From an uncultured Prevotellaceae bacterium (GTDB lineage Bacteria; Bacteroidota; Bacteroidia; Bacteroidales; Bacteroidaceae), in the NCBI GenBank assembly GCA_946184125.1, contig CAMHEL010000003.1:4489-68488 (forward strand): a DNA stretch of 64,000 nucleotides, read 5' to 3'. Every line of letters begins with the position of its first letter. Within the stretch, counting starts at the first letter, position 1. The notes beneath the pieces were generated by a model. It ran no database searches and had not been told where the DNA came from. It saw only the letters and a program-made list of their open reading frames with translations. Positions 34,369-64,000 of this stretch are shown here, piece after piece. The translations under genes and the position numbers were made by a program.

Positions 34369-35282
34369 GCGACATGACGCTTCCCTACCACACTCCCGTC
34401 CTCCTTCACGAGAGCGTCGATGGCCTTGCCATCCGTCCCGACGGGGTGTATGTCGATGTCACCTTTGGCGGTGGCGGGCACAGCAGGGAGATACTCAGCC
34501 GCCTGGGGCCCGCGGGGCGCCTCTTCGGGTTCGATCAGGATGGCGACAGCGAGCGCAACATCCCCGCCGACGAGCCACGCTTCACCTTCGTCAGGAGCAA
34601 TTTCAGGTACCTCTCCAACTGGATGCGCTACCATGGCATCGATGCGGTCGACGGCGTGCTGGCCGACCTCGGAGTGTCGGGGCATCATTTCGACGACGAG
34701 AGCCGCGGCTTCTCGTTCCGGTTCGATGCACCACTCGACATGAGGATGAACCAGAAGGCACGCCTCAGTGCAGACGATGTGGTGAATGGGTACAGCGAGG
34801 AGCGACTTGCCGACATCCTTCACCTCTACGGAGAACTGCACAACGCGCGGAGGGTGGCGGCAGCCATCGCGGCAGCAAGGTCGAAGGCACATATCGCCAC
34901 AACCGCCCAACTGGTGGATGCCGTGGCGAAGCTCTTCCCACGCGAGCGCGAGAAGAAGGAGGTGACGAAAGTGTTCCAGGCACTGCGCATCGAGGTCAAC
35001 CACGAGATGAGCGCACTCGCCGAAATGCTGACAGCTGCCACCGAACTGCTGTGCAGCGGAGGAAGGTTGGTGGTCATCACCTACCACAGCCTCGAAGACC
35101 GCATCGTGAAGAACGTGATGCGCTCGGGCAACAGCGAGGGCCGTGTGGAGCAGGACTTCTTCGGTCGTACCCACGCACCGCTGCGGCCCCTGAGCAACAA
35201 GGTGGTGACACCAAGCGCAGAAGAGCTGGAGGCCAACCCAAGGAGCAGAAGCGCGAAACTACGCATCGCCGAGAAGGCATGA
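34365..35282 (+). CDS. rsmH: 16S rRNA (cytosine1402-N4)-methyltransferase
   Basis: Blocks YHTPVLLHESVDGL..DGVYVDVTFGGGGHS and ITYHSLEDRIVK. A 4-nt ATGA overlap joins it to mraZ. Confidence 0.93.
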   Translation: MSDMTLPYHTPVLLHESVDGLAIRPDGVYVDVTFGGGGHSREILSRLGPAGRLFGFDQDGDSERNIPADEPRFTFVRSNFRYLSNWMRYHGIDAVDGVLADLGVSGHHFDDESRGFSFRFDAPLDMRMNQKARLSADDVVNGYSEERLADILHLYGELHNARRVAAAIAAARSKAHIATTAQLVDAVAKLFPREREKKEVTKVFQALRIEVNHEMSALAEMLTAATELLCSGGRLVVITYHSLEDRIVKNVMRSGNSEGRVEQDFFGRTHAPLRPLSNKVVTPSAEELEANPRSRSAKLRIAEKA

Positions 35283-35354
35283 CAAGACCAGACAAGACAA
35301 ACGAGACAGAAGGGCACAGCCCATAAGACGAAGAAAAGAAAGAACAACCAAGGA

Positions 35355-35909
35355 TTGGAAATGAGAACCGAAGAAAACATCGCCCAAGAAGCTATTGCCG
35401 CAACAGGACAAGCGGCTGACAGCACTCCCAGTGGGGAGGAAGATGAGATGACGGCGGAAGGCGTGATGGCCTCCGACGACGACACAGAAGAAGAGACAGA
35501 AGAAGAAGAGGGCGAGGAGCACCCTGCGCACCCCACCCTGAAAGAAGTCATAGAAGAGAACGCGCGCGAGGACGAGAAACCTTTCTCGGCATCGCTCACA
35601 CTGAGGTCCATCCTCGGTGGCGACATTCTCAACACACAGGGCATCAGGCGACAGGTATGGCTCATCCTGCTCATCACCTTCTTTGCCATACTCTACGTGT
35701 CGAACCGTTACTACTGCCAGAAGCAGCAAATCAAGATAGAGAACCTCACGACAGAGCTGAAGAAGTCGAAATACAAGACGCTGTCGCTCTCGAGCGAGCT
35801 TACTGAGAGGTGCAGGGAGAGCCACGTGGTGGAAATGCTGCGCGCCAACAACGACAGCACCATTCACCCCGCCGACCAGCCGCCATACATCATCATCGTC
35901 CCCAACTAA
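35355..35909 (+). CDS. FtsL-like cell-division protein with an acidic N-terminal extension
   Basis: Single TM segment (VWLILLITFFAILYV) followed by a coiled-coil segment. It sits between rsmH and ftsI. Confidence 0.7.
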   Translation: MEMRTEENIAQEAIAATGQAADSTPSGEEDEMTAEGVMASDDDTEEETEEEEGEEHPAHPTLKEVIEENAREDEKPFSASLTLRSILGGDILNTQGIRRQVWLILLITFFAILYVSNRYYCQKQQIKIENLTTELKKSKYKTLSLSSELTERCRESHVVEMLRANNDSTIHPADQPPYIIIVPN

Positions 35910-57039: not shown

Positions 57040-59010
57040 ATGACTGACATAGAGAATCCAGAGAGCAATTACTCTGCGAAAAACATCCAGGTGCTTGAGG
57101 GTCTTGAGGCCGTCCGCAAGCGCCCTGCCATGTATATAGGCGACATCAGCGAGAAAGGACTCCACCACTTGGTGAACGAGACGGTGGACAACTCCATCGA
57201 CGAGGCAATGGCAGGCTACTGTACTCACATCGAGGTGACCATCAACGAGGACAACTCCATCACCGTTCAGGACAACGGTCGTGGCATCCCCGTCGATGAG
57301 CATAAGAAACTGCACAAGTCGGCACTCGAAGTGGTCATGACAGTGCTCCACGCCGGTGGCAAGTTCGACAAGGGCTCCTACAAGGTGAGCGGTGGACTGC
57401 ACGGCGTCGGCGTGAGCTGCGTCAACGCACTCTCCTCACACATGATGTCGCAAGTGTTCCGCGACGGAAAGATTTACCAGCAGGAATACGAGAAAGGCAA
57501 GCCTCTCTATCCCGTGAAAGTGGTGGGAGAGACCGACCGCCAGGGCACCCGCCAACAGTTCTGGCCCGACCCCACCATCTTCACCAGCACCGTCTATCAG
57601 TACGACATCATCGCACGCCGCATGCGCGAGCTCGCCTATCTCAATGCAGGCATCACCATCACGCTGACCGACCTCCGTCCCGACGAGAGTGGGGCAACAC
57701 GCCAGGAGGTCTATCATGCCCGTGAGGGACTCAAGGAGTTCGTCAGGTTCATCGACCGCCACCGCAGCCACCTCTTCAACGATGTCATCTACCTGAAGAC
57801 CGAGAAGCAGGGCGTGCCTATCGAAGTGGCCATCATGTACAACACCGACTATACGGAGAACATCCACTCTTATGTCAACAACATCAACACGATAGAGGGC
57901 GGCACACACCTTCAGGGCTTCCGCATGGCCCTCACGCGCACGCTGAAGAAATATGCCGACAACGACCCCGCCATCTCGAAGCAGATAGAGAAGGCGAAGA
58001 TAGAGATTGCCGGCGAGGACTTCCGCGAGGGACTGACGGCAGTCATCTCCATCAAGGTGGCCGAACCGCAGTTCGAAGGCCAGACGAAGACCAAACTGGG
58101 CAACAGCGAGGTGTCGGGAGCCGTGCAGCAAGCCGTCAGCGAGGCACTCAACAACTACCTTGAGGAGCATCCCAAAGAGGCAAAACTCATCTGCGAGAAA
58201 GTGGTGCTCGCAGCCACCGCACGTATCGCAGCACGCAAGGCACGCGAGAGCGTGCAGCGCAAGAGCGTCATGTCGGGAGGCGGACTGCCCGGCAAACTCG
58301 CCGACTGTTCCAACAAAGACCCCAAGGAGTGCGAGATTTTCCTCGTCGAGGGCGACTCTGCAGGTGGCTCCGCCAAGCAGGGCCGCGACCGCTACACACA
58401 GGCCATCCTTCCCCTGAGAGGAAAAATCCTCAATGTGGAGAAAGTGCAGTGGCACCGCGTCTTCGAAGCAGAGTCGGTGATGAACATCATCCAGAGCATC
58501 GGCGTGAGATTCGGCGTCGAGGGAGAGGGCGACCGTGAGGCCAACATCGACAAGCTACGCTACGACAAAATCATCATCATGACCGATGCCGATGTCGATG
58601 GCTCACACATCGACACGCTCATCATGACCCTCTTCTACCGCTTCATGCCCAAGGTCATCCAGGAGGGGCACCTCTACATCGCCACGCCACCACTCTACAA
58701 ATGCTCTTACAAGAAGGTGGAGCGCTACTGCTACACCGAGCAGCAGCGCCAGGCCTTCATCGATGAGTTCGTGGCAGGCAACGGCGACGACAAGGCCCTC
58801 CACACCCAGCGATACAAAGGTCTCGGCGAGATGAACCCCGAGCAGCTCTGGGAGACCACCATGGACCCGAAGAACCGACTGCTCAAGCAGGTGACCATCG
58901 AGAATGCCGCCGAAGCCGACGAAATCTTCTCGATGCTCATGGGCGACGACGTGGAGCCCCGACGCGAGTTCATCGAGTCAAACGCCACCTACGCCACCAT
59001 CGACGCTTAG
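57040..59010 (+). CDS. gyrB: DNA gyrase subunit B
   Basis: GHKL ATPase block GLHHLVNETVDNSIDEA plus GGLHGVGVSCVNALS. Toprim motif EGDSAGGSAKQGRDR. C-terminal block QRYKGLGEMNPEQLWETTM. Confidence 0.97.
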   Translation: MTDIENPESNYSAKNIQVLEGLEAVRKRPAMYIGDISEKGLHHLVNETVDNSIDEAMAGYCTHIEVTINEDNSITVQDNGRGIPVDEHKKLHKSALEVVMTVLHAGGKFDKGSYKVSGGLHGVGVSCVNALSSHMMSQVFRDGKIYQQEYEKGKPLYPVKVVGETDRQGTRQQFWPDPTIFTSTVYQYDIIARRMRELAYLNAGITITLTDLRPDESGATRQEVYHAREGLKEFVRFIDRHRSHLFNDVIYLKTEKQGVPIEVAIMYNTDYTENIHSYVNNINTIEGGTHLQGFRMALTRTLKKYADNDPAISKQIEKAKIEIAGEDFREGLTAVISIKVAEPQFEGQTKTKLGNSEVSGAVQQAVSEALNNYLEEHPKEAKLICEKVVLAATARIAARKARESVQRKSVMSGGGLPGKLADCSNKDPKECEIFLVEGDSAGGSAKQGRDRYTQAILPLRGKILNVEKVQWHRVFEAESVMNIIQSIGVRFGVEGEGDREANIDKLRYDKIIIMTDADVDGSHIDTLIMTLFYRFMPKVIQEGHLYIATPPLYKCSYKKVERYCYTEQQRQAFIDEFVAGNGDDKALHTQRYKGLGEMNPEQLWETTMDPKNRLLKQVTIENAAEADEIFSMLMGDDVEPRREFIESNATYATIDA

Positions 59011-59169: not shown

Positions 59170-61566
59170 ATGAAAAAGCCTCATTTCTTCCTCCTGTTCA
59201 CCCTTCTCTCAGCGTGTCTCACCAGCTTTGCCGCAGAACCCCTTCCCATGCGACTGTGGTATGACCGCCCCGCCACCTACTTCGAGGAGTCGCTGCCCAT
59301 CGGCAACGGGAAACTCGGTGCACTGGTGTATGGCGGCGTCGACGACAACCTCATCTACCTCAACGACATCACCCTCTGGACGGGCAAACCCGTCGACCCC
59401 AACCTCGACGCTGGTGCCCACCGCTGGCTGCCCGACATCCGGCGGGCCCTCTTCGCCGAAGACTATGCCCTCGCCGACAGTCTCCAACTGCACGTGCAAG
59501 GCCCCAACTCACAGTTCTACCAACCCCTCGGCACACTCCACATCCTCGACGACAACACCGGCGAGGCCACAGGCTACACCCGCGAGCTCAGCCTCGACAG
59601 CGCACTGTGCCGCGACCGCTACCGCCAGGGAGGCCTCACCTTCGAGCGCGAATACTTCGCATCCTACCCCGACAAGGTGGTGGCCATGCGCATCGTCAGC
59701 AGCGGCAAGGGCATCAACTGCCGCATCACCCTCTCCGCACAGGTGCCCCACAAGGTGAAAGCTTCAGGAGGAAAGGAGGGCAGCGCACAGCTCACCATGA
59801 CAGGCCATGCCACGGGCGACGCGAGCGAGAGCACACACTTCTGCTGCATGACAGCCGCCCGTGCCACCGACGGCGAACTGTCGGTCTCCGACTCCACCAT
59901 CACCGTCCGCGGTGCCTCATCCCTCATCCTCTATGTAGTCAACGAGACGAGCTTCGACGGAGCATCCCGTCATCCCGTGTCGGAGGGAGCACCCTACATC
60001 GAGCGTGCCACCGACGACCTGTGGCATCTCGCCAACTACAGCTACGGGGCACTTCGCCAGCGCCATATCGACGACTACCGCCCCTACTTCACACGCATGA
60101 CGCTCAACCTTGGCGACGACAGCCGCCAGCGCAGCGACTACCGCACCATGACCACCGACTCACTGCTGAAGGCATACACCGACAATAGCGGCAACAACCG
60201 CTGCCTCGAGGCGCTCTATTTCCAGTATGGCCGTTACCTGCTCATCGCCTGCTCGCGCACGCCTAACGTGCCAGCCAATCTCCAGGGACTTTGGACTCCA
60301 CGTCTCTACTCCCCCTGGCGCGGCAACTATACCGTGAACATCAATTTGGAGGAGAACTACTGGCCTGCCGAGGTGGCCAACCTGAGTGAGATGGCCATGC
60401 CTCTTTGGGGCTTCATGCAGTCGCTGGCCGACAACGGGCGCCATGTGGCACGAAACTACTATGGCATAGGGCGCGGCTGGTGCTCCAGCCACAACAGCGA
60501 CATCTGGGCGATGGCTAACCCAGTGGGCGAGAAGCGCGAGAGCCCGGAATGGAGCAACTGGAACCTCGGTGGCGCATGGCTCACCCAGGCCCTCTGGGAA
60601 CATTACCGCTTCACCGGCGACCGTGAATGGCTTGCCTCCACCGCCTATCCCCTGATGCGCGGCGCCACGGAGTTCTGTCTCGACTGGCTCATCGACAACC
60701 CGAAACGGCAGGGTGAGCTGATCACCGCGCCAAGCACCTCGCCCGAGAATGAGTACAAGACGCAGGAAGGCTATCACGGCACGACCTGCTATGGTGGCAC
60801 CGCCGACCTGGCCATCATCCGTGAATTGCTGGGCAACACCCTCAGTGCCGGTCGCCTCGTGGGCGACGACAAAGCCTTCCTTGCCGACGTGGAGAGCCAC
60901 CTCCGACGCCTGCACCCCTACACCATAGGGCACGATGGCGACATCAACGAGTGGTACTACGACTGGGACGACTGGGACCCGCAGCACCGCCACCAGTCAC
61001 ACCTCATCGGCCTCTACCCGGGGCACCAAATCACCGTCGATGGCACGCCCGACTTGGCCCGGGCTGCACGCCGCAGCCTTGAGATCAAAGGCGACAAGAC
61101 CACCGGCTGGAGCACCGGCTGGCGCATCTGCCTGTGGGCACGCCTTCGCGATGGCGCCCAGGCCTACCACATCTTCCAGAAATTGCTCACCTACGTCTCA
61201 CCCGACAACTACAAGGGTCCCGACCGCCGACGGTCGGGAGGCACCTACCCCAACCTGTTCGACGCACATCCGCCCTTCCAAATCGACGGCAACTTCGGCG
61301 GCACGGCGGGTGTGTGCGAAATGCTGCTGCAGAGCGGCGACGACACCCTGCTGCTCCTTCCAGCACTACCCGAGCCATGGGGTGAGGGTAGCGTCAGCGG
61401 ACTGCGCGCCCGTGGAAACCGCACCGTCGACCTCGTATGGAGCGATGGGGGCACACACGTGAAAGCCACCATCCATGCAGCATCGAAAGGAAAAGTGAGC
61501 CTGACATTCAAGGGAAAAACCCGCAAGGTGAACCTCAAAAAGGGGAAAAACGAGGTGGCTTTCTAA
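59170..61566 (+). CDS. Glycoside hydrolase family 95 (alpha-L-fucosidase-like)
   Basis: Start chosen at [15 protein letters not shown] (signal peptide). The N-terminal block [23 protein letters not shown] and later blocks ([45 protein letters not shown]) are characteristic of GH95. Confidence 0.85.
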
Positions 61567-61636
61567 GCCAAACTACCCCTACATTCTTTTTTCCAGGAGT
61601 TGAGAAATGCTTTTTTCCTTGAGGGAACAAAACACA

Positions 61637-61668
61637 AAAGGTGGGCTCATCACCCACCTTTCTATTTT
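61637..61668. terminator. Hairpin between convergent GH95 and sigma-factor genes
   Basis: AAAGGTGGG-loop-CCCACCTTT followed by CTATTTT. Confidence 0.5.
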
Positions 61669-61685
61669 CTCTCTTTCATAACTTG

Positions 61686-62519
61686 TCAAGAAGCCACCAT
61701 CATCTCACTCATTCTTTTCTTCATCATTCTCAACACCTTTATTTTCCTACTTTTCACACTATCTCCATTCTTATATCCTATTCTCTTCGCTATCTCATTC
61801 ATCATACATCCATCCAAATAAAAACTCTCCAATATCATCCTATCTACATCACTTATTCCATCCCATAACTTCTTCAACATCTCATACTTTTCTTCAATCC
61901 TCATCTTATCTTCAATCACTTCTATCACATCCTCCAATGCATATCTAACTTCATATTTTCTATCATTTCTCTCCACCAACTCATCATAACTCACTTCTTC
62001 ATCCTTCACTTTTCTCAAATAATGCATCCCTATATTCCAGCAAATCTTTTTCAGAAAACTATCCAGCGAATCCTCTTTTAACTGATAATTATCATCTATC
62101 ATCTTATTCCACAACACCAAACAACCATCACTATACACCTCTTCCAAATCATAATAACTCAATCTCCTAAATTTACATATCAAAAACATCATCACCCCTT
62201 CTCTTTCTTCTTCCATCACCTTCTCAAAATAGTGCTTTTTTACATCTATCAGTTTCCTTACTTGCTGCTGGGGGCTCTCAATCTTAATTACAGTTTTACT
62301 TATCAACTTCCCTACTTTCTTTCTTAAATTCTTTCTCTCTTTCTCTTTCTTCTTTCTCTCCTTCTCTTTCTCTCTCCTTTTTCTCTCCTTCTCCTTTTCC
62401 TTTTCCTTCTCTTTCTTCTTTCTCTCTTTCTCCTTCTCTCTCCTTTTTCTCTCCTCCTCCTTTCTTTTTTCCTCCTTCACATTTTTCATTTCAATTTTCC
62501 CCATTTCTTTCTTTTCCAT
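61686..62519 (-). CDS. ECF-type sigma-70 family RNA polymerase sigma factor with a ~95-aa K/E/R-rich N-terminal extension
   Basis: Region-2-like block EVYSDGCLVLWNKM..DSFLKKICWNIGMHYLRKVK. Region-4-like HTH block DVDRMILESFYLDGCMMNEIAKRIGYKNGDSVKSRKIKVLRMMKKRM. The N-terminus reads KEEKRKEEERKRREKEKERKKKEKEKEKEKERKRREKEKERKKKEKERK. Confidence 0.65.
   Translation of the reverse strand: MEKKEMGKIEMKNVKEEKRKEEERKRREKEKERKKKEKEKEKEKERKRREKEKERKKKEKERKNLRKKVGKLISKTVIKIESPQQQVRKLIDVKKHYFEKVMEEEREGVMMFLICKFRRLSYYDLEEVYSDGCLVLWNKMIDDNYQLKEDSLDSFLKKICWNIGMHYLRKVKDEEVSYDELVERNDRKYEVRYALEDVIEVIEDKMRIEEKYEMLKKLWDGISDVDRMILESFYLDGCMMNEIAKRIGYKNGDSVKSRKIKVLRMMKKRMSEMMVAS
62331..62478. repeat. Uninterrupted 148-bp homopyrimidine (+ strand) / homopurine tract containing a 66-bp tandem duplication
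   Basis: Read directly from the sequence: only C and T on the + strand from 62331 to 62478. The motif CTCTTTCTTCTTTCTCTC..TTCTCTCTCCTTTTTCTCTCCT recurs with a 66-nt period (about 62344 and about 62410). Confidence 0.9.
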
Positions 62520-62622
62520 ACCTTCTTATTTTATCTTGTGTAATTTTAACGAGAGAAAAACCATTGAAAGCCTATCACAAATATTAGATTTTTTTGAAAA
62601 AAAGTCATTCACAGGCCTTCAT

Positions 62623-62658
62623 GCGACAAAAATCTCGTTGATTCGGTGTTTTTGTCGC
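62623..62658. repeat. 10-bp perfect inverted repeat (GCGACAAAAA / TTTTTGTCGC, 16-nt spacer) in the divergent intergenic region
   Basis: Read directly from the sequence. It lies between the sigma-factor start (62519) and the OMP gene (62854). Function unknown. Confidence 0.5.
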
Positions 62659-62731
62659 AAAAATGGGCGGCTGTCATATCAAACAAGTTCGAAATTGAGG
62701 GTGTTTCTTGGAGTGAGAGGATTATTTTTCC

Positions 62732-62739
62732 TATCTTTG
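62732..62739 (+). promoter_or_regulatory. -7 promoter box TATCTTTG upstream of the OM beta-barrel gene
   Basis: TAnnTTTG match 115 nt upstream of the ATG at 62854. Confidence 0.35.
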
Positions 62740-62853
62740 CATCGTCGAAAGGGGAATACGAGCAGAAACGACCCAATAGGAGTTTTCCCATTCCTCTACA
62801 CTTTTTGAATAATAATTAATCGATAATAAAAAAATAATAAAAGAAAAAGAATT

Positions 62854-63456
62854 ATGAAAAAGTACATTGCATTGGTCGTAGTCGCCATAATGACTTCAGT
62901 GAGTATGAATGCTCAGCAACAGGGAGAATTAAACTACAAGGTTCGTCTGGGTGCAGCCATGTCGACTATCACCAATAACGACGATGCCAAGATGGAACCC
63001 AACCTCCAATATGCTGTTGGTTTGGACTATATGCTGACCAACAAGTTTGCGGTAGGTTTGGAAGTACAGGGCAACAATCTGGGAGCGAAGAGCAAGGCAT
63101 TTGACAAGCGGATGACACTTTCGTATACCAGTATTCCACTGCTGGCCAAATATTATGTAACACCATGGTTGGCTCTGCAGGCTGGTCCACAAGTCAGCTT
63201 CCTGGGAAAGGCGACGATGGATGGCGAGACTTCTTTCATGGGCAATAAGGTAAAAGACAAACTGAAGAAGGTAGAACTGGCTATTCCCCTCGGCTTCTCT
63301 TTTGAGCCGAAGATTGGCAAGAATGGTGATGCGCTGCTCGTAGACCTTCGCTACCATCTGGGTGTGACACCTATGAATAAGAAGATTGATAACGAAGCCA
63401 AGTCATCTTACAACAGCGCCATCTGCCTCACCGTGGGCTATCGCACGAATTTCTGA
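62854..63456 (+). CDS. Small outer-membrane beta-barrel (porin-family / OMP_b-brl-type) protein
   Basis: Signal peptide MKKYIALVVVAIMTSVSMNAQ. Alternating amphipathic strands are visible. The C-terminus ends ..VGYRTNF. Confidence 0.7.
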   Translation: MKKYIALVVVAIMTSVSMNAQQQGELNYKVRLGAAMSTITNNDDAKMEPNLQYAVGLDYMLTNKFAVGLEVQGNNLGAKSKAFDKRMTLSYTSIPLLAKYYVTPWLALQAGPQVSFLGKATMDGETSFMGNKVKDKLKKVELAIPLGFSFEPKIGKNGDALLVDLRYHLGVTPMNKKIDNEAKSSYNSAICLTVGYRTNF

Positions 63457-63495
63457 GATAAAAGTCATTGTGCGGAGTGAGACGAGCATACAAGA

Positions 63496-63532
63496 AGCGG
63501 TGGATTGTTTGCCAGGCAAACAATCCACCGCT
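63496..63532. terminator. Bidirectional terminator hairpin
   Basis: Near-perfect palindrome AGCGGTGGATTGTTTGCC-A-GGCAAACAATCCACCGCT between convergent genes. Confidence 0.65.
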
Positions 63533-63566
63533 CGCTTATGATGGGTTCTATTCATTCCCACCTTAA

Positions 63567-64000
63567 TTATTCCTCAAACTCGAGGAAGAGCTGCCGGTCG
63601 CCAAGGAGGTTGAAGGAACGGCGGTGATAGGGTGAAATGCCATGAAGGCGTATGGCATCACGGTGTTTGCGGGTGGGGTAACCTTTATTGCTGAGCCAGT
63701 CGTACTGGGGGTATTCGGCGGCAAGGGCATTCATATAGTCATCGCGGAAGGTTTTGGCGAGGATGCTCGCCGCGGCGATGGAGAGATATTTCCCATCGCC
63801 TTTGACGATGGTGGTGTACGGCAACTGGTTGTAGGGTTTGAAGCGGTTTCCGTCGACGATGATGGCCTCGGGGCGCACAGCGAGCTTGTCGAGTGCACGG
63901 TGCATGGCGAGGATGGAAGCGTTGAGGATGTTGATTTTGTCAATCTCGGCAGGACTCACCTCGCCCACGGCCCATGCCACGGCATCGTGCATGATGACTT
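63567..64000 (-). CDS. rnhB: Ribonuclease HII; 5' end outside the window
   Basis: Blocks INILNASILAMHRALDKL, VDGN and AAASILAKTFRDDYM are typical of RNase HII. The reading frame is still open at the window edge. Confidence 0.85.
   Translation of the reverse strand, partial: VIMHDAVAWAVGEVSPAEIDKINILNASILAMHRALDKLAVRPEAIIVDGNRFKPYNQLPYTTIVKGDGKYLSIAAASILAKTFRDDYMNALAAEYPQYDWLSNKGYPTRKHRDAIRLHGISPYHRRSFNLLGDRQLFLEFEE

Follow-up and report, generated by a model that had tools for sequence, protein, structure and literature searches.

A mainly Prevotellaceae clade of ECF-type sigma factor genes nearly devoid of cytosine in the coding strand

Extracytoplasmic function (ECF, group 4) sigma factors, for example Escherichia coli sigmaE, Mycobacterium tuberculosis SigH and SigL, and Pseudomonas aeruginosa AlgU, combine a sigma2 with a sigma4 domain and often have a co-encoded anti-sigma factor and an autoregulated promoter, which are common but not obligatory; near-absence of C from the coding sequence is a property of no described sigma group. 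Extreme skews in a single base are known from mutational strand asymmetry (deamination linked to replication or transcription; the low-G genes of the vertebrate mitochondrial L-strand), where the skew extends over entire replicons or transcription units and the deamination product is enriched. Genes without the target sequence of an attack are familiar from the mRNAs that escape the toxins MazF and MqsR and from the engineered single-protein-production system; in those cases a 3-nt motif is missing, either because the gene is short and lacks it by chance or because it was engineered out, and the product is made selectively while the attack lasts. Bases are themselves the target in DarT1-NADAR-type systems, which act on G and C: NADARs undo the ADP-ribosylation of guanine and cytidine on single-stranded DNA and RNA (PMC11543638, PMC12945103), and bacterial PARG undoes the 2'-O-ADP-ribosylation of RNA (PMC11833690). 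The gene described here lies in a 64,000-nt stretch (the window) of contig CAMHEL010000003.1 from an uncultured Prevotellaceae bacterium (assembly GCA_946184125.1), on the minus strand at 61686..62519; it encodes an ECF-type sigma factor, and its coding strand holds next to no C.

The gene and its homologues resemble each of these systems in part. They share the sigma2 and sigma4 architecture of the ECF sigmas, and the motifs of regions 2.1-2.4 and 4.2 are recognisable in the alignment of the family; the C depletion is specific to this clade. Their promoter looks to be of the housekeeping Bacteroidota type with palindromic operators, unlike an autoregulated ECF promoter, and there is no anti-sigma-like neighbour in the window or in related loci. 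The skew is as extreme as the mutational ones but ends at the open reading frame (ORF) and shows no excess of T. In contrast to the MazF and MqsR cases, one base has been removed from a gene of 660-830 nt, the removal is conserved across a clade, and the protein has been reshaped by it. Finally, G and C, the bases targeted by DarT1-NADAR-type systems, are the same two that are strand-extreme in the sigma gene, and in most loci the neighbours of the family resemble the enzyme types of DarT1-NADAR, ScARP/Scabin-SCO5665 NADAR and RhsP2-bacterial PARG, although no gene for a transferase (toxin) was found among them.

An exact count of the plus strand over the 834 nt of the window gene gives T358 C267 A188 G21, so that the coding strand has 2.5% C, 32% G, 43% A and 22.5% T. 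Eleven of the 21 G lie at 62232..62293, the region that encodes SPQQQ..L..H. Both the total and the clustering of about half of it had been estimated by hand in the original prediction, and both estimates held on exact counting. The lowest-G stretch of 834 nt anywhere in the 64 kb has 19 G and starts at 61694, against a mean of 219; in 200-nt windows the GC skew is -0.97 to -1.00 within the sigma ORF and about 0 on either side, and this ORF alone among the roughly 55 long ORFs of the window has less than 21% C in its sense strand. Its GC content is 34.5%, against 56% for the whole window.

The depletion goes far beyond what the encoded protein demands. Re-encoding the same protein with the codon usage of the window yields 150.6 +/- 6.6 C, against 21 observed (z = -19.6), and no encoding of this protein could have fewer than 12. 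Codons with C, which account for 81% of Asp, 80% of Asn, 89% of Phe, 78% of Ile and 83% of Arg codons in the host, are used in none of the 17 Asp, 8 Asn, 5 Phe, 17 Ile and 25 Arg codons of the sigma gene, which thus employs the rarest codons of its host. The amino acids whose codons require C (Ala, Pro, Thr, Gln and His) together account for 4.0% of its residues; in the host their share is 23.9%. The earlier claims that the asymmetry is confined to the gene and exceeds ordinary codon bias, and that the protein is built from C-free codons, are therefore borne out, as is the change in skew at the ends of the ORF for which a sliding-window check had been proposed. Loci compared from other genomes carry L-numbers, L044 being a separate contig from an independent metagenome, 97.5% identical over 2 kb; its copy of the gene likewise has 21 C, and the low C content is therefore no assembly artefact.

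To judge from the family alignment and the predicted structure, the window ORF appears to be an intact, functional ECF-type sigma factor under purifying selection. At the sequence level the assignment is marginal: NCBIfam TIGR02937 matches residues 116-268 with 44.9 bits (cut-off 42.9), and the Pfam Sigma70_r2/r4 models do not match the window protein at E <= 1. An AlphaFold2 model built with 20 homologues reaches a predicted local distance difference test score (pLDDT) of 77, and its 50 best matches in the PDB are sigma factors, with ECF sigmas on top (SigH, SigL, sigmaE and AlgU; the top fold matches are 5zx2_F at E = 9e-4, 1or7 and 6in7); TM-scores to ECF sigmas are low, at 0.2-0.45, owing to the N-terminal helix and to domain orientation. 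The model predicts two helical domains corresponding to sigma2 and sigma4, that is, an ECF fold lacking sigma3 and sigma1.1. All 36 invariant columns of the family alignment are kept in the window gene, and the ratio of non-synonymous to synonymous substitution rates (dN/dS) between close family pairs is 0.12-0.42. The identification as an ECF sigma made in the original prediction thus stands, through TIGR02937 and the fold matches, with the Pfam models silent.

The N-terminal part of the window protein differs from that of most relatives by a lineage-specific, Lys/Glu/Arg-rich insertion (coordinates of this and other features are given in Table 1), which contains a 66-nt tandem repeat in 2.2 copies at 62329..62473 and is modelled by AlphaFold2 as a single long helix. 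At the DNA level it is an almost pure polypurine/polypyrimidine tract, and codons 1-81 of the gene contain a single C. In the near-identical strain contig L044 (L044:904-1716) the insertion is shorter by 9 codons, in frame, and similar K-rich N-termini occur in a few other family members (P0002 and P0019; the contig of P0002 is 980 bp long and gives no gene context). The C-terminus of the window protein reads ..SEMMVAS rather than the LPxAA-type tail of the family. A protein look-up gave no record of the exact window protein, and an Rfam scan of 61000..64000 gave no matches.

The avoidance of C is a property of a clade. A protein search with the window sigma returned 1,686 homologues, and in all of the best 120 of these (50-60% identical) Ala, Pro, Thr, Gln and His together amount to 1.9-6.8%. 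Thirty genome loci were compared, from metagenome-assembled genomes (MAGs) of rumen Prevotellaceae and from two isolates, Xylanibacter ruminicola KHT3 and Prevotella sp. P5-92; in 29 of these loci C makes up 2.3-5.6% of the sense strand, irrespective of the GC content of the flanks (41-59%). The C-poor zone coincides with the ORF and its AT-rich leader in every locus, and all neighbouring genes, including co-transcribed ones, have 15-32% C. Pooled over 31 genes, GAT outnumbers GAC by 460 to 27, AAT outnumbers AAC by 293 to 17, TAT outnumbers TAC by 256 to 10, AGR outnumbers CGN by 489 to 18, and the Ser codon AGT outnumbers the other Ser codons by 263 to 63. Across the clade Arg is thus encoded almost solely by AGR, Leu mostly by TTR and Ser by AGT, and Ala, Pro, Thr, Gln and His are nearly gone: the avoidance governs synonymous choices and has changed the make-up of the protein as well.

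The boundaries of the trait are sharp. An exhaustive search of representatives confines it to a clade whose members are roughly >=34% identical; in sigmas further out the share of Ala, Pro, Thr, Gln and His is the usual 12-26%, and the nearest sigmas of normal composition are at most 31% identical. Within the clade it is stable over about 50% protein divergence and over hosts of 41-59% GC. This is a discrete clade, mostly of rumen and gut Prevotellaceae, under strong and long-lasting selection against C in the sense strand, which is equivalent to selection against G in the transcribed strand; there is no such avoidance of G in the message or of C in the template. By the original prediction, widespread homologues of ordinary composition would have spoken against it; the close homologues are indeed widespread, and all of them avoid C. 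The one exception to the compositional range among the 30 loci, in a Porphyromonadaceae MAG of 59% GC (L019:1970-2641), has 12% C, and its third positions are richest, at 20% C. This relaxed member retains DUF6939, promoter, operator and hairpin (described below) and might serve as a natural control for the constraint. Additional C-poor 200-nt windows in L004 and L029 proved to be intergenic and not further C-free genes.

A search of 8 million papers and preprints turned up nothing on the sigma clade or its lack of C, nor on DUF6939, DUF1810 or DUF6717 in such a context; in particular, no earlier description was found of a natural gene of about 700 nt with 3% C that is conserved over about 50% protein divergence. 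As far as we can tell, the sigma factor represents a new clade of a known family, and a conserved purge of one nucleotide that is confined to an ORF has not been reported.

Where C is retained, it is retained by position. It survives only where it is functionally needed, namely at an invariant His (His166; CAT or CAC in 31 of 31 genes), at an invariant Ala (Ala244; GCN in 31 of 31), in an A..LPxAA tail, and in an mRNA hairpin of the main family, which forms the 5' cluster of C. The A..L-P-x-A-A tail is present in most family members. Their C-termini, ..A(D/E)xxxLP(L/A)(A/V)A (columns 280-293 of alignment A1), are ssrA-like and cost about 8-10 C, which are kept despite the avoidance; from its sequence, the tail may be a proteolysis tag.

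The hairpin lies within the coding sequence (L008:6040-6083; 30 further loci have the homologous 44 nt) and has an 11-bp stem and an 11-nt purine loop, often AAGGAGGAAA. The stem places all four local C in G-C pairs, and these are the only C in the 5' third of the gene; correspondingly, the four Leu columns of the cluster are encoded by CTN, although Leu is TTR everywhere else in the family genes. Over 31 sequences, 88.6% of alignment cells pair, a value that falls to 49-62% on sliding the 3' arm, and six pairs show compensatory changes; none of 500 shuffles matches the observed values. The compensatory changes alter both of the encoded residues (ACT..AGT versus TCT..AGA). In typical members the hairpin has a folding energy of -17 to -18 kcal/mol (z about -5), and since its G.U pairs are frequent it would act in the sense RNA rather than as a DNA palindrome. 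RNAalifold on the leader plus the first 150 nt gives a weak consensus call of -0.05 kcal/mol, and the hairpin is clear only on explicit test. The window copy has C at the equivalent site, encoding Pro, three Gln, Leu and His, and no fold there (-1.5 kcal/mol, z = +1.15).

In the Prevotellaceae the sigma gene is part of a recurrent island, and at least one neighbour of an ADP-ribose type is present in 25 of the 30 family loci. The neighbours are a divergently transcribed DUF6939 gene in 18, a downstream ARH gene in 9 (or a bacterial-type PARG gene instead), a gene for a protein that joins a Nudix domain to a winged helix-turn-helix (Nudix-wHTH) in 16, DUF1810 paralogues in 14, and genes for DUF6717/VWA proteins in 13, with a LytTR protein as an occasional further neighbour. 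The Nudix-wHTH gene starts 20-50 nt past the sigma stop codon in several loci. Its product is closest to AraR of Bacteroides thetaiotaomicron, of the NrtR family (5bs6, 5e-49), and keeps a perfect Nudix box, GX5EX7REUXEEXGU (L035:3295-3987, L041:9593-10285, L008:6684-7376), unlike most NrtR regulators and unlike AraR itself, which is without an intact one (PMC4666351). By this motif, the protein may be an ADP-ribose-type hydrolase and a repressor at once. PADLOC gave no match for the sigma factor or the island proteins, except for a weak Nudix match.

The family leader carries a housekeeping-type -7 box of the Bacteroidota, TAnnTTTG, and downstream of it, 25-36 nt from the ATG, a 15-bp palindrome, GCGTAA-N3-TTACGC. 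Another copy, about 60 nt further upstream, faces DUF6939, and in L013 and L034 the palindrome also precedes a VWA/DUF6717 gene (positions L008:5890-5975 and equivalents; L013:4168, 4254; L034:2306, 3833, 3863). A different palindrome, GGCAWTATATWTGCC, is located directly upstream of DUF6939. The 15-bp palindrome looks like the operator of a dimeric repressor, for which the Nudix-wHTH protein of the island would be the obvious candidate.

The window copy is an orphan in the core chromosome, which has kept the C-free design and has lost island, operators and hairpin. Searches of the 64-kb window by tblastn with all island proteins found nothing, and the surroundings are ordinary core chromosome of Bacteroidales type with about 56% GC. 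The start codon and about 45 nt of the leader are homologous to the family, and the -7 box and palindrome are degenerate, a remnant, GTGTAATTTTAACG, being left at 62538..62551 (plus strand); an exact TAnnTTTG is absent upstream of the window gene on the minus strand.

The C-free design is real, with overwhelming statistics behind it, and speaks for selection that acts on the DNA or RNA as such. Of the causes proposed in the original prediction, selection on the nucleic acid is thus the class that survives; structure, the form in which it was proposed, becomes one candidate among several and is weighed below. Our favoured reading, to which we give a probability of about one in three (0.35), is that the sigma factor is a regulator hardened against base-specific nucleic-acid damage, probably nucleic-acid ADP-ribosylation; it is favoured because of the genomic context of the islands. 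Each C in the sense strand, or each G in the template, would cost the cell by being a target of base-specific attack, and given such a cost per site, a base-specific block of elongation fits better than a bulk property of the transcript. The likeliest attack would be the ADP-ribosylation of cytidine in RNA or single-stranded DNA, or of guanine in template DNA; adducts on template G would stop RNA polymerase, or adducts on C in the message would stop ribosomes. A sigma gene without the target base could still be transcribed and translated while other genes were blocked, so that the C-free sigma would be a hardened first responder, made during the attack. The island neighbours share with the sigma gene the putative palindromic operators around a housekeeping-type promoter.

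More generally, and as a tentative proposal in which we place somewhat less trust still, such base-hardened genes might represent a new regulatory design principle, in which a clade has been purged of one nucleotide in response to a base-specific weapon. Candidate weapons would include the ADP-ribosylation of C or G, a chain terminator that is an analogue of C, or a C-specific nuclease. The hardened regulator, expressed selectively in the attack, would switch on erasers and repair, and the few C that are retained, in the 5' hairpin and the degron-like C-terminal tail, might serve as built-in sensors. If the trait is adaptive, the choice of both codons and amino acids can be overruled throughout a gene family by selection on one nucleotide, and base composition alone could flag genes that are needed during attacks on nucleic acids; if the link to ADP-ribosylation is true, a widespread and uncharacterised island of rumen and gut Prevotellaceae is tied to the biology of DNA and RNA ADP-ribosylation.

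Several observations weigh against this reading of a hardened regulator. The relation of DUF6939 to the NADARs is faint: 15 of 16 members match Pfam NADAR-DarT1 (PF22397), with E = 1e-4 to 0.1, below the gathering score; hhalign aligns FSPF with FSNF and VEGIWQGLKVF with SEHYFQAQKF of E. coli YbiA at a weak E = 0.14; a profile search of PDB sequences with DUF6939 found nothing meaningful; and its AlphaFold2 model, with a pLDDT of 51, is too poor for a fold search. No ADP-ribosyltransferase gene was found in the islands, and the window copy and five other loci have no island and yet avoid C. We know of no nucleic-acid ADP-ribosylation system that includes a sigma factor or a base-depleted gene, and of no toxin specific for C alone or for template G in the Bacteroidota; the known cytidine modifiers ScARP and Scabin also act on G, which makes up 32-36% of the sigma mRNA. 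In the family genes C does occur in the 5' leader and in the last 10 or so codons. The presumed target genes are of normal composition, so that a further argument, for instance that the sigma acts as a sensor, is required for why it alone would be hardened.

The physics of the transcript offers a rather unlikely alternative, in which selection acts for the absence of a Rho loading (rut) site, and thereby for escape from premature termination when translation is impaired, for little structure, or for very stable RNA:DNA hybrids. Rho prefers C-rich, G-poor RNA, and the folding energy of the window mRNA, -0.093 kcal/mol per nt, is far from the -0.27 to -0.37 of neighbouring genes; moreover, the main family keeps exactly one stable hairpin, built from the few retained C, and this suggests that RNA structure itself is under selection. 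A skew of C below G would be enough to escape Rho, however, and none of these properties needs a C content of 3% or a rebuilt set of amino acids; U, at 22-30%, is not avoided, so that A-U and G-U pairing are possible, and the ADP-ribose context is left unexplained. A cost per base, and hence near-total removal even at the expense of amino acids, would instead follow from nucleotide sparing, in which a G-free template is transcribed when CTP is depleted or in the presence of toxic or chain-terminating CTP analogues, so that the sigma would still be produced and turn on a response. Element sparing in assimilatory enzymes, the sensing of CTP at pyrG and the G-less cassettes used in vitro are precedents, and the restriction to one ORF among co-transcribed genes of normal composition is what would be expected if only this product had to be finished. 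We nevertheless consider CTP independence unlikely: there are no genes of pyrimidine metabolism in any neighbourhood, nothing connects the ADP-ribose genes with CTP, and the 4-6 C of the leader, with about 12 more in hairpin and C-terminal tail, would still stall RNA polymerase at very low CTP. The depletion would also fit an mRNA that survives the activation of an endoribonuclease because it offers no site to an interferase requiring C (ACA-, GCU- or UAC-type, MazF- or MqsR-like) or to a C-specific RNase, and the escape of ACA-less and GCU-less mRNAs from MazF and MqsR is a precedent. This is quite improbable, as the removal of a motif does not demand the loss of every C, the leader contains C, and the operonic transcript runs on into genes of normal C content, where cleavage would still sever or destabilise the message; nor does any toxin-antitoxin or RNase gene recur beside the family.

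Causes that involve no selection on the nucleic acid fare worse. Hypermutation specific to gene and strand, through C-to-T deamination of the non-template strand under heavy transcription or in R-loops, or through a deaminase toxin, might have eroded C without selection; the survival of C chiefly at constrained positions, the enrichment of Val, Ile, Met, Tyr and Phe, which a C-to-T change yields from codons for Ala, Thr, His, Ser and Leu, and the strong positive GC skew, which favours R-loops, all agree with it. At four-fold degenerate Val and Gly sites, however, C is at 29-38% in neighbouring genes and at only 1-2% in the sigma gene, and the deficit goes to G in Val (from 37% to 61%) and to A in Gly (from 22% to 44%), with no enrichment of T beyond proportion (35% in Gly, against 42% expected). 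The next ORF overlaps the sigma stop codon in L035 and begins 20 nt after it in L008, with C fractions at third positions of 0.32-0.35, which excludes a mutational process that acts on the transcription unit as a whole. Leu codons of the synonymous CTN type persist at the sites that pair in the hairpin, and the stability of the trait over divergent proteins and hosts tells in the same direction. A mutational origin is therefore very improbable, and the C-to-T deamination history that had been suggested at the outset fails on the missing T excess and on the normal C of downstream genes in the same operon.

The recent arrival of an AT-rich foreign gene, regulation through rare codons or tRNAs, or a need of the protein for Lys, Glu, Arg and Met would be more ordinary causes, and the low GC content of the gene and its use of the rarest host codons are what recommends them. 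Together they are extremely unlikely. Third positions have 45% G and 3% C, a pattern of one avoided base and not of AT bias; hosts of 41% GC, in which NNT codons are not rare, show the same trait; avoidance at synonymous sites cannot be a requirement of the protein. The idea of a restricted tRNA set was rejected because NNC and NNT codons share tRNAs and such a set cannot explain the preference of GAT over GAC. The foreign origin named in the original prediction, in the sense of AT-rich DNA, falls with the same third-position figures and with the range of host GC; the viral contigs that were searched contain no homologue of the window sigma, and a phage origin was dropped on that account. What probability remains beyond these explanations belongs to a cause not yet thought of.

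Table 1. Coordinates of features in the 64-kb window
Position	Strand	Feature	Basis or remark
61686..62519	-	277-aa ORF, ECF-type sigma-70 family factor	sense strand: 21 C in 834 nt
62520..62570	-	5' leader homologous to family leader	leader alignment
62277..62516	-	Lys/Glu/Arg-rich insertion just after the start codon, about 65-80 codons	lineage-specific
62222..62276	-	residual C cluster, codons 82-100, S-P-Q-Q-Q..L..H	positional homologue of family hairpin
62010..62222	-	sigma region 2, about residues 100-170	family alignment
62022..62024	-	invariant His166 codon CAT, among the few retained C	His column CAT/CAC in 31/31 genes
61716..61898	-	sigma region 4 helix-turn-helix, about residues 208-268	TIGR02937 match and family alignment
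61788..61790	-	invariant Ala244 codon, region 4 helix-turn-helix	Ala column GCN in 31/31 genes
61636..61662	-	terminator-like hairpin, 11 pairs, then T-run	24 nt past the sigma stop codon
about 33.8-50 kb		dcw cell-division cluster	named by eye from ORF translations
57040..59010		GyrB-like ORF	named by eye from ORF translation
59170..61566		likely GH95 glycosidase	named by eye from ORF translation
		SusC/D-like genes	named by eye from ORF translations

The composition of the gene has side effects on annotation. Since a strand without G can hold only TAA stops, spurious antisense ORFs of 73 and 75 aa appear on the plus strand at 61600..61868; they are rich in Ser, Leu, Phe, His, Ile and Thr and should not be annotated. 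The GA-rich codons at 62290..62500 (minus strand) and in the ORFs of the family give rise to many perfect Shine-Dalgarno-like strings, AGGAGG or GGAGG. Internal strings of this kind would stall ribosomes in most bacteria; Bacteroidota ribosomes reportedly sequester their anti-Shine-Dalgarno sequence, and the strings may be tolerated here for that reason. A further compositional anomaly of the window, on the plus strand at 35169..35416 in the dcw cluster, is poor in T (<=6%) and rich in A, G and C; it covers the end of an rsmH-like gene and the leader and acidic N-terminus of an ftsL-like one, and looks like ordinary low-complexity sequence.

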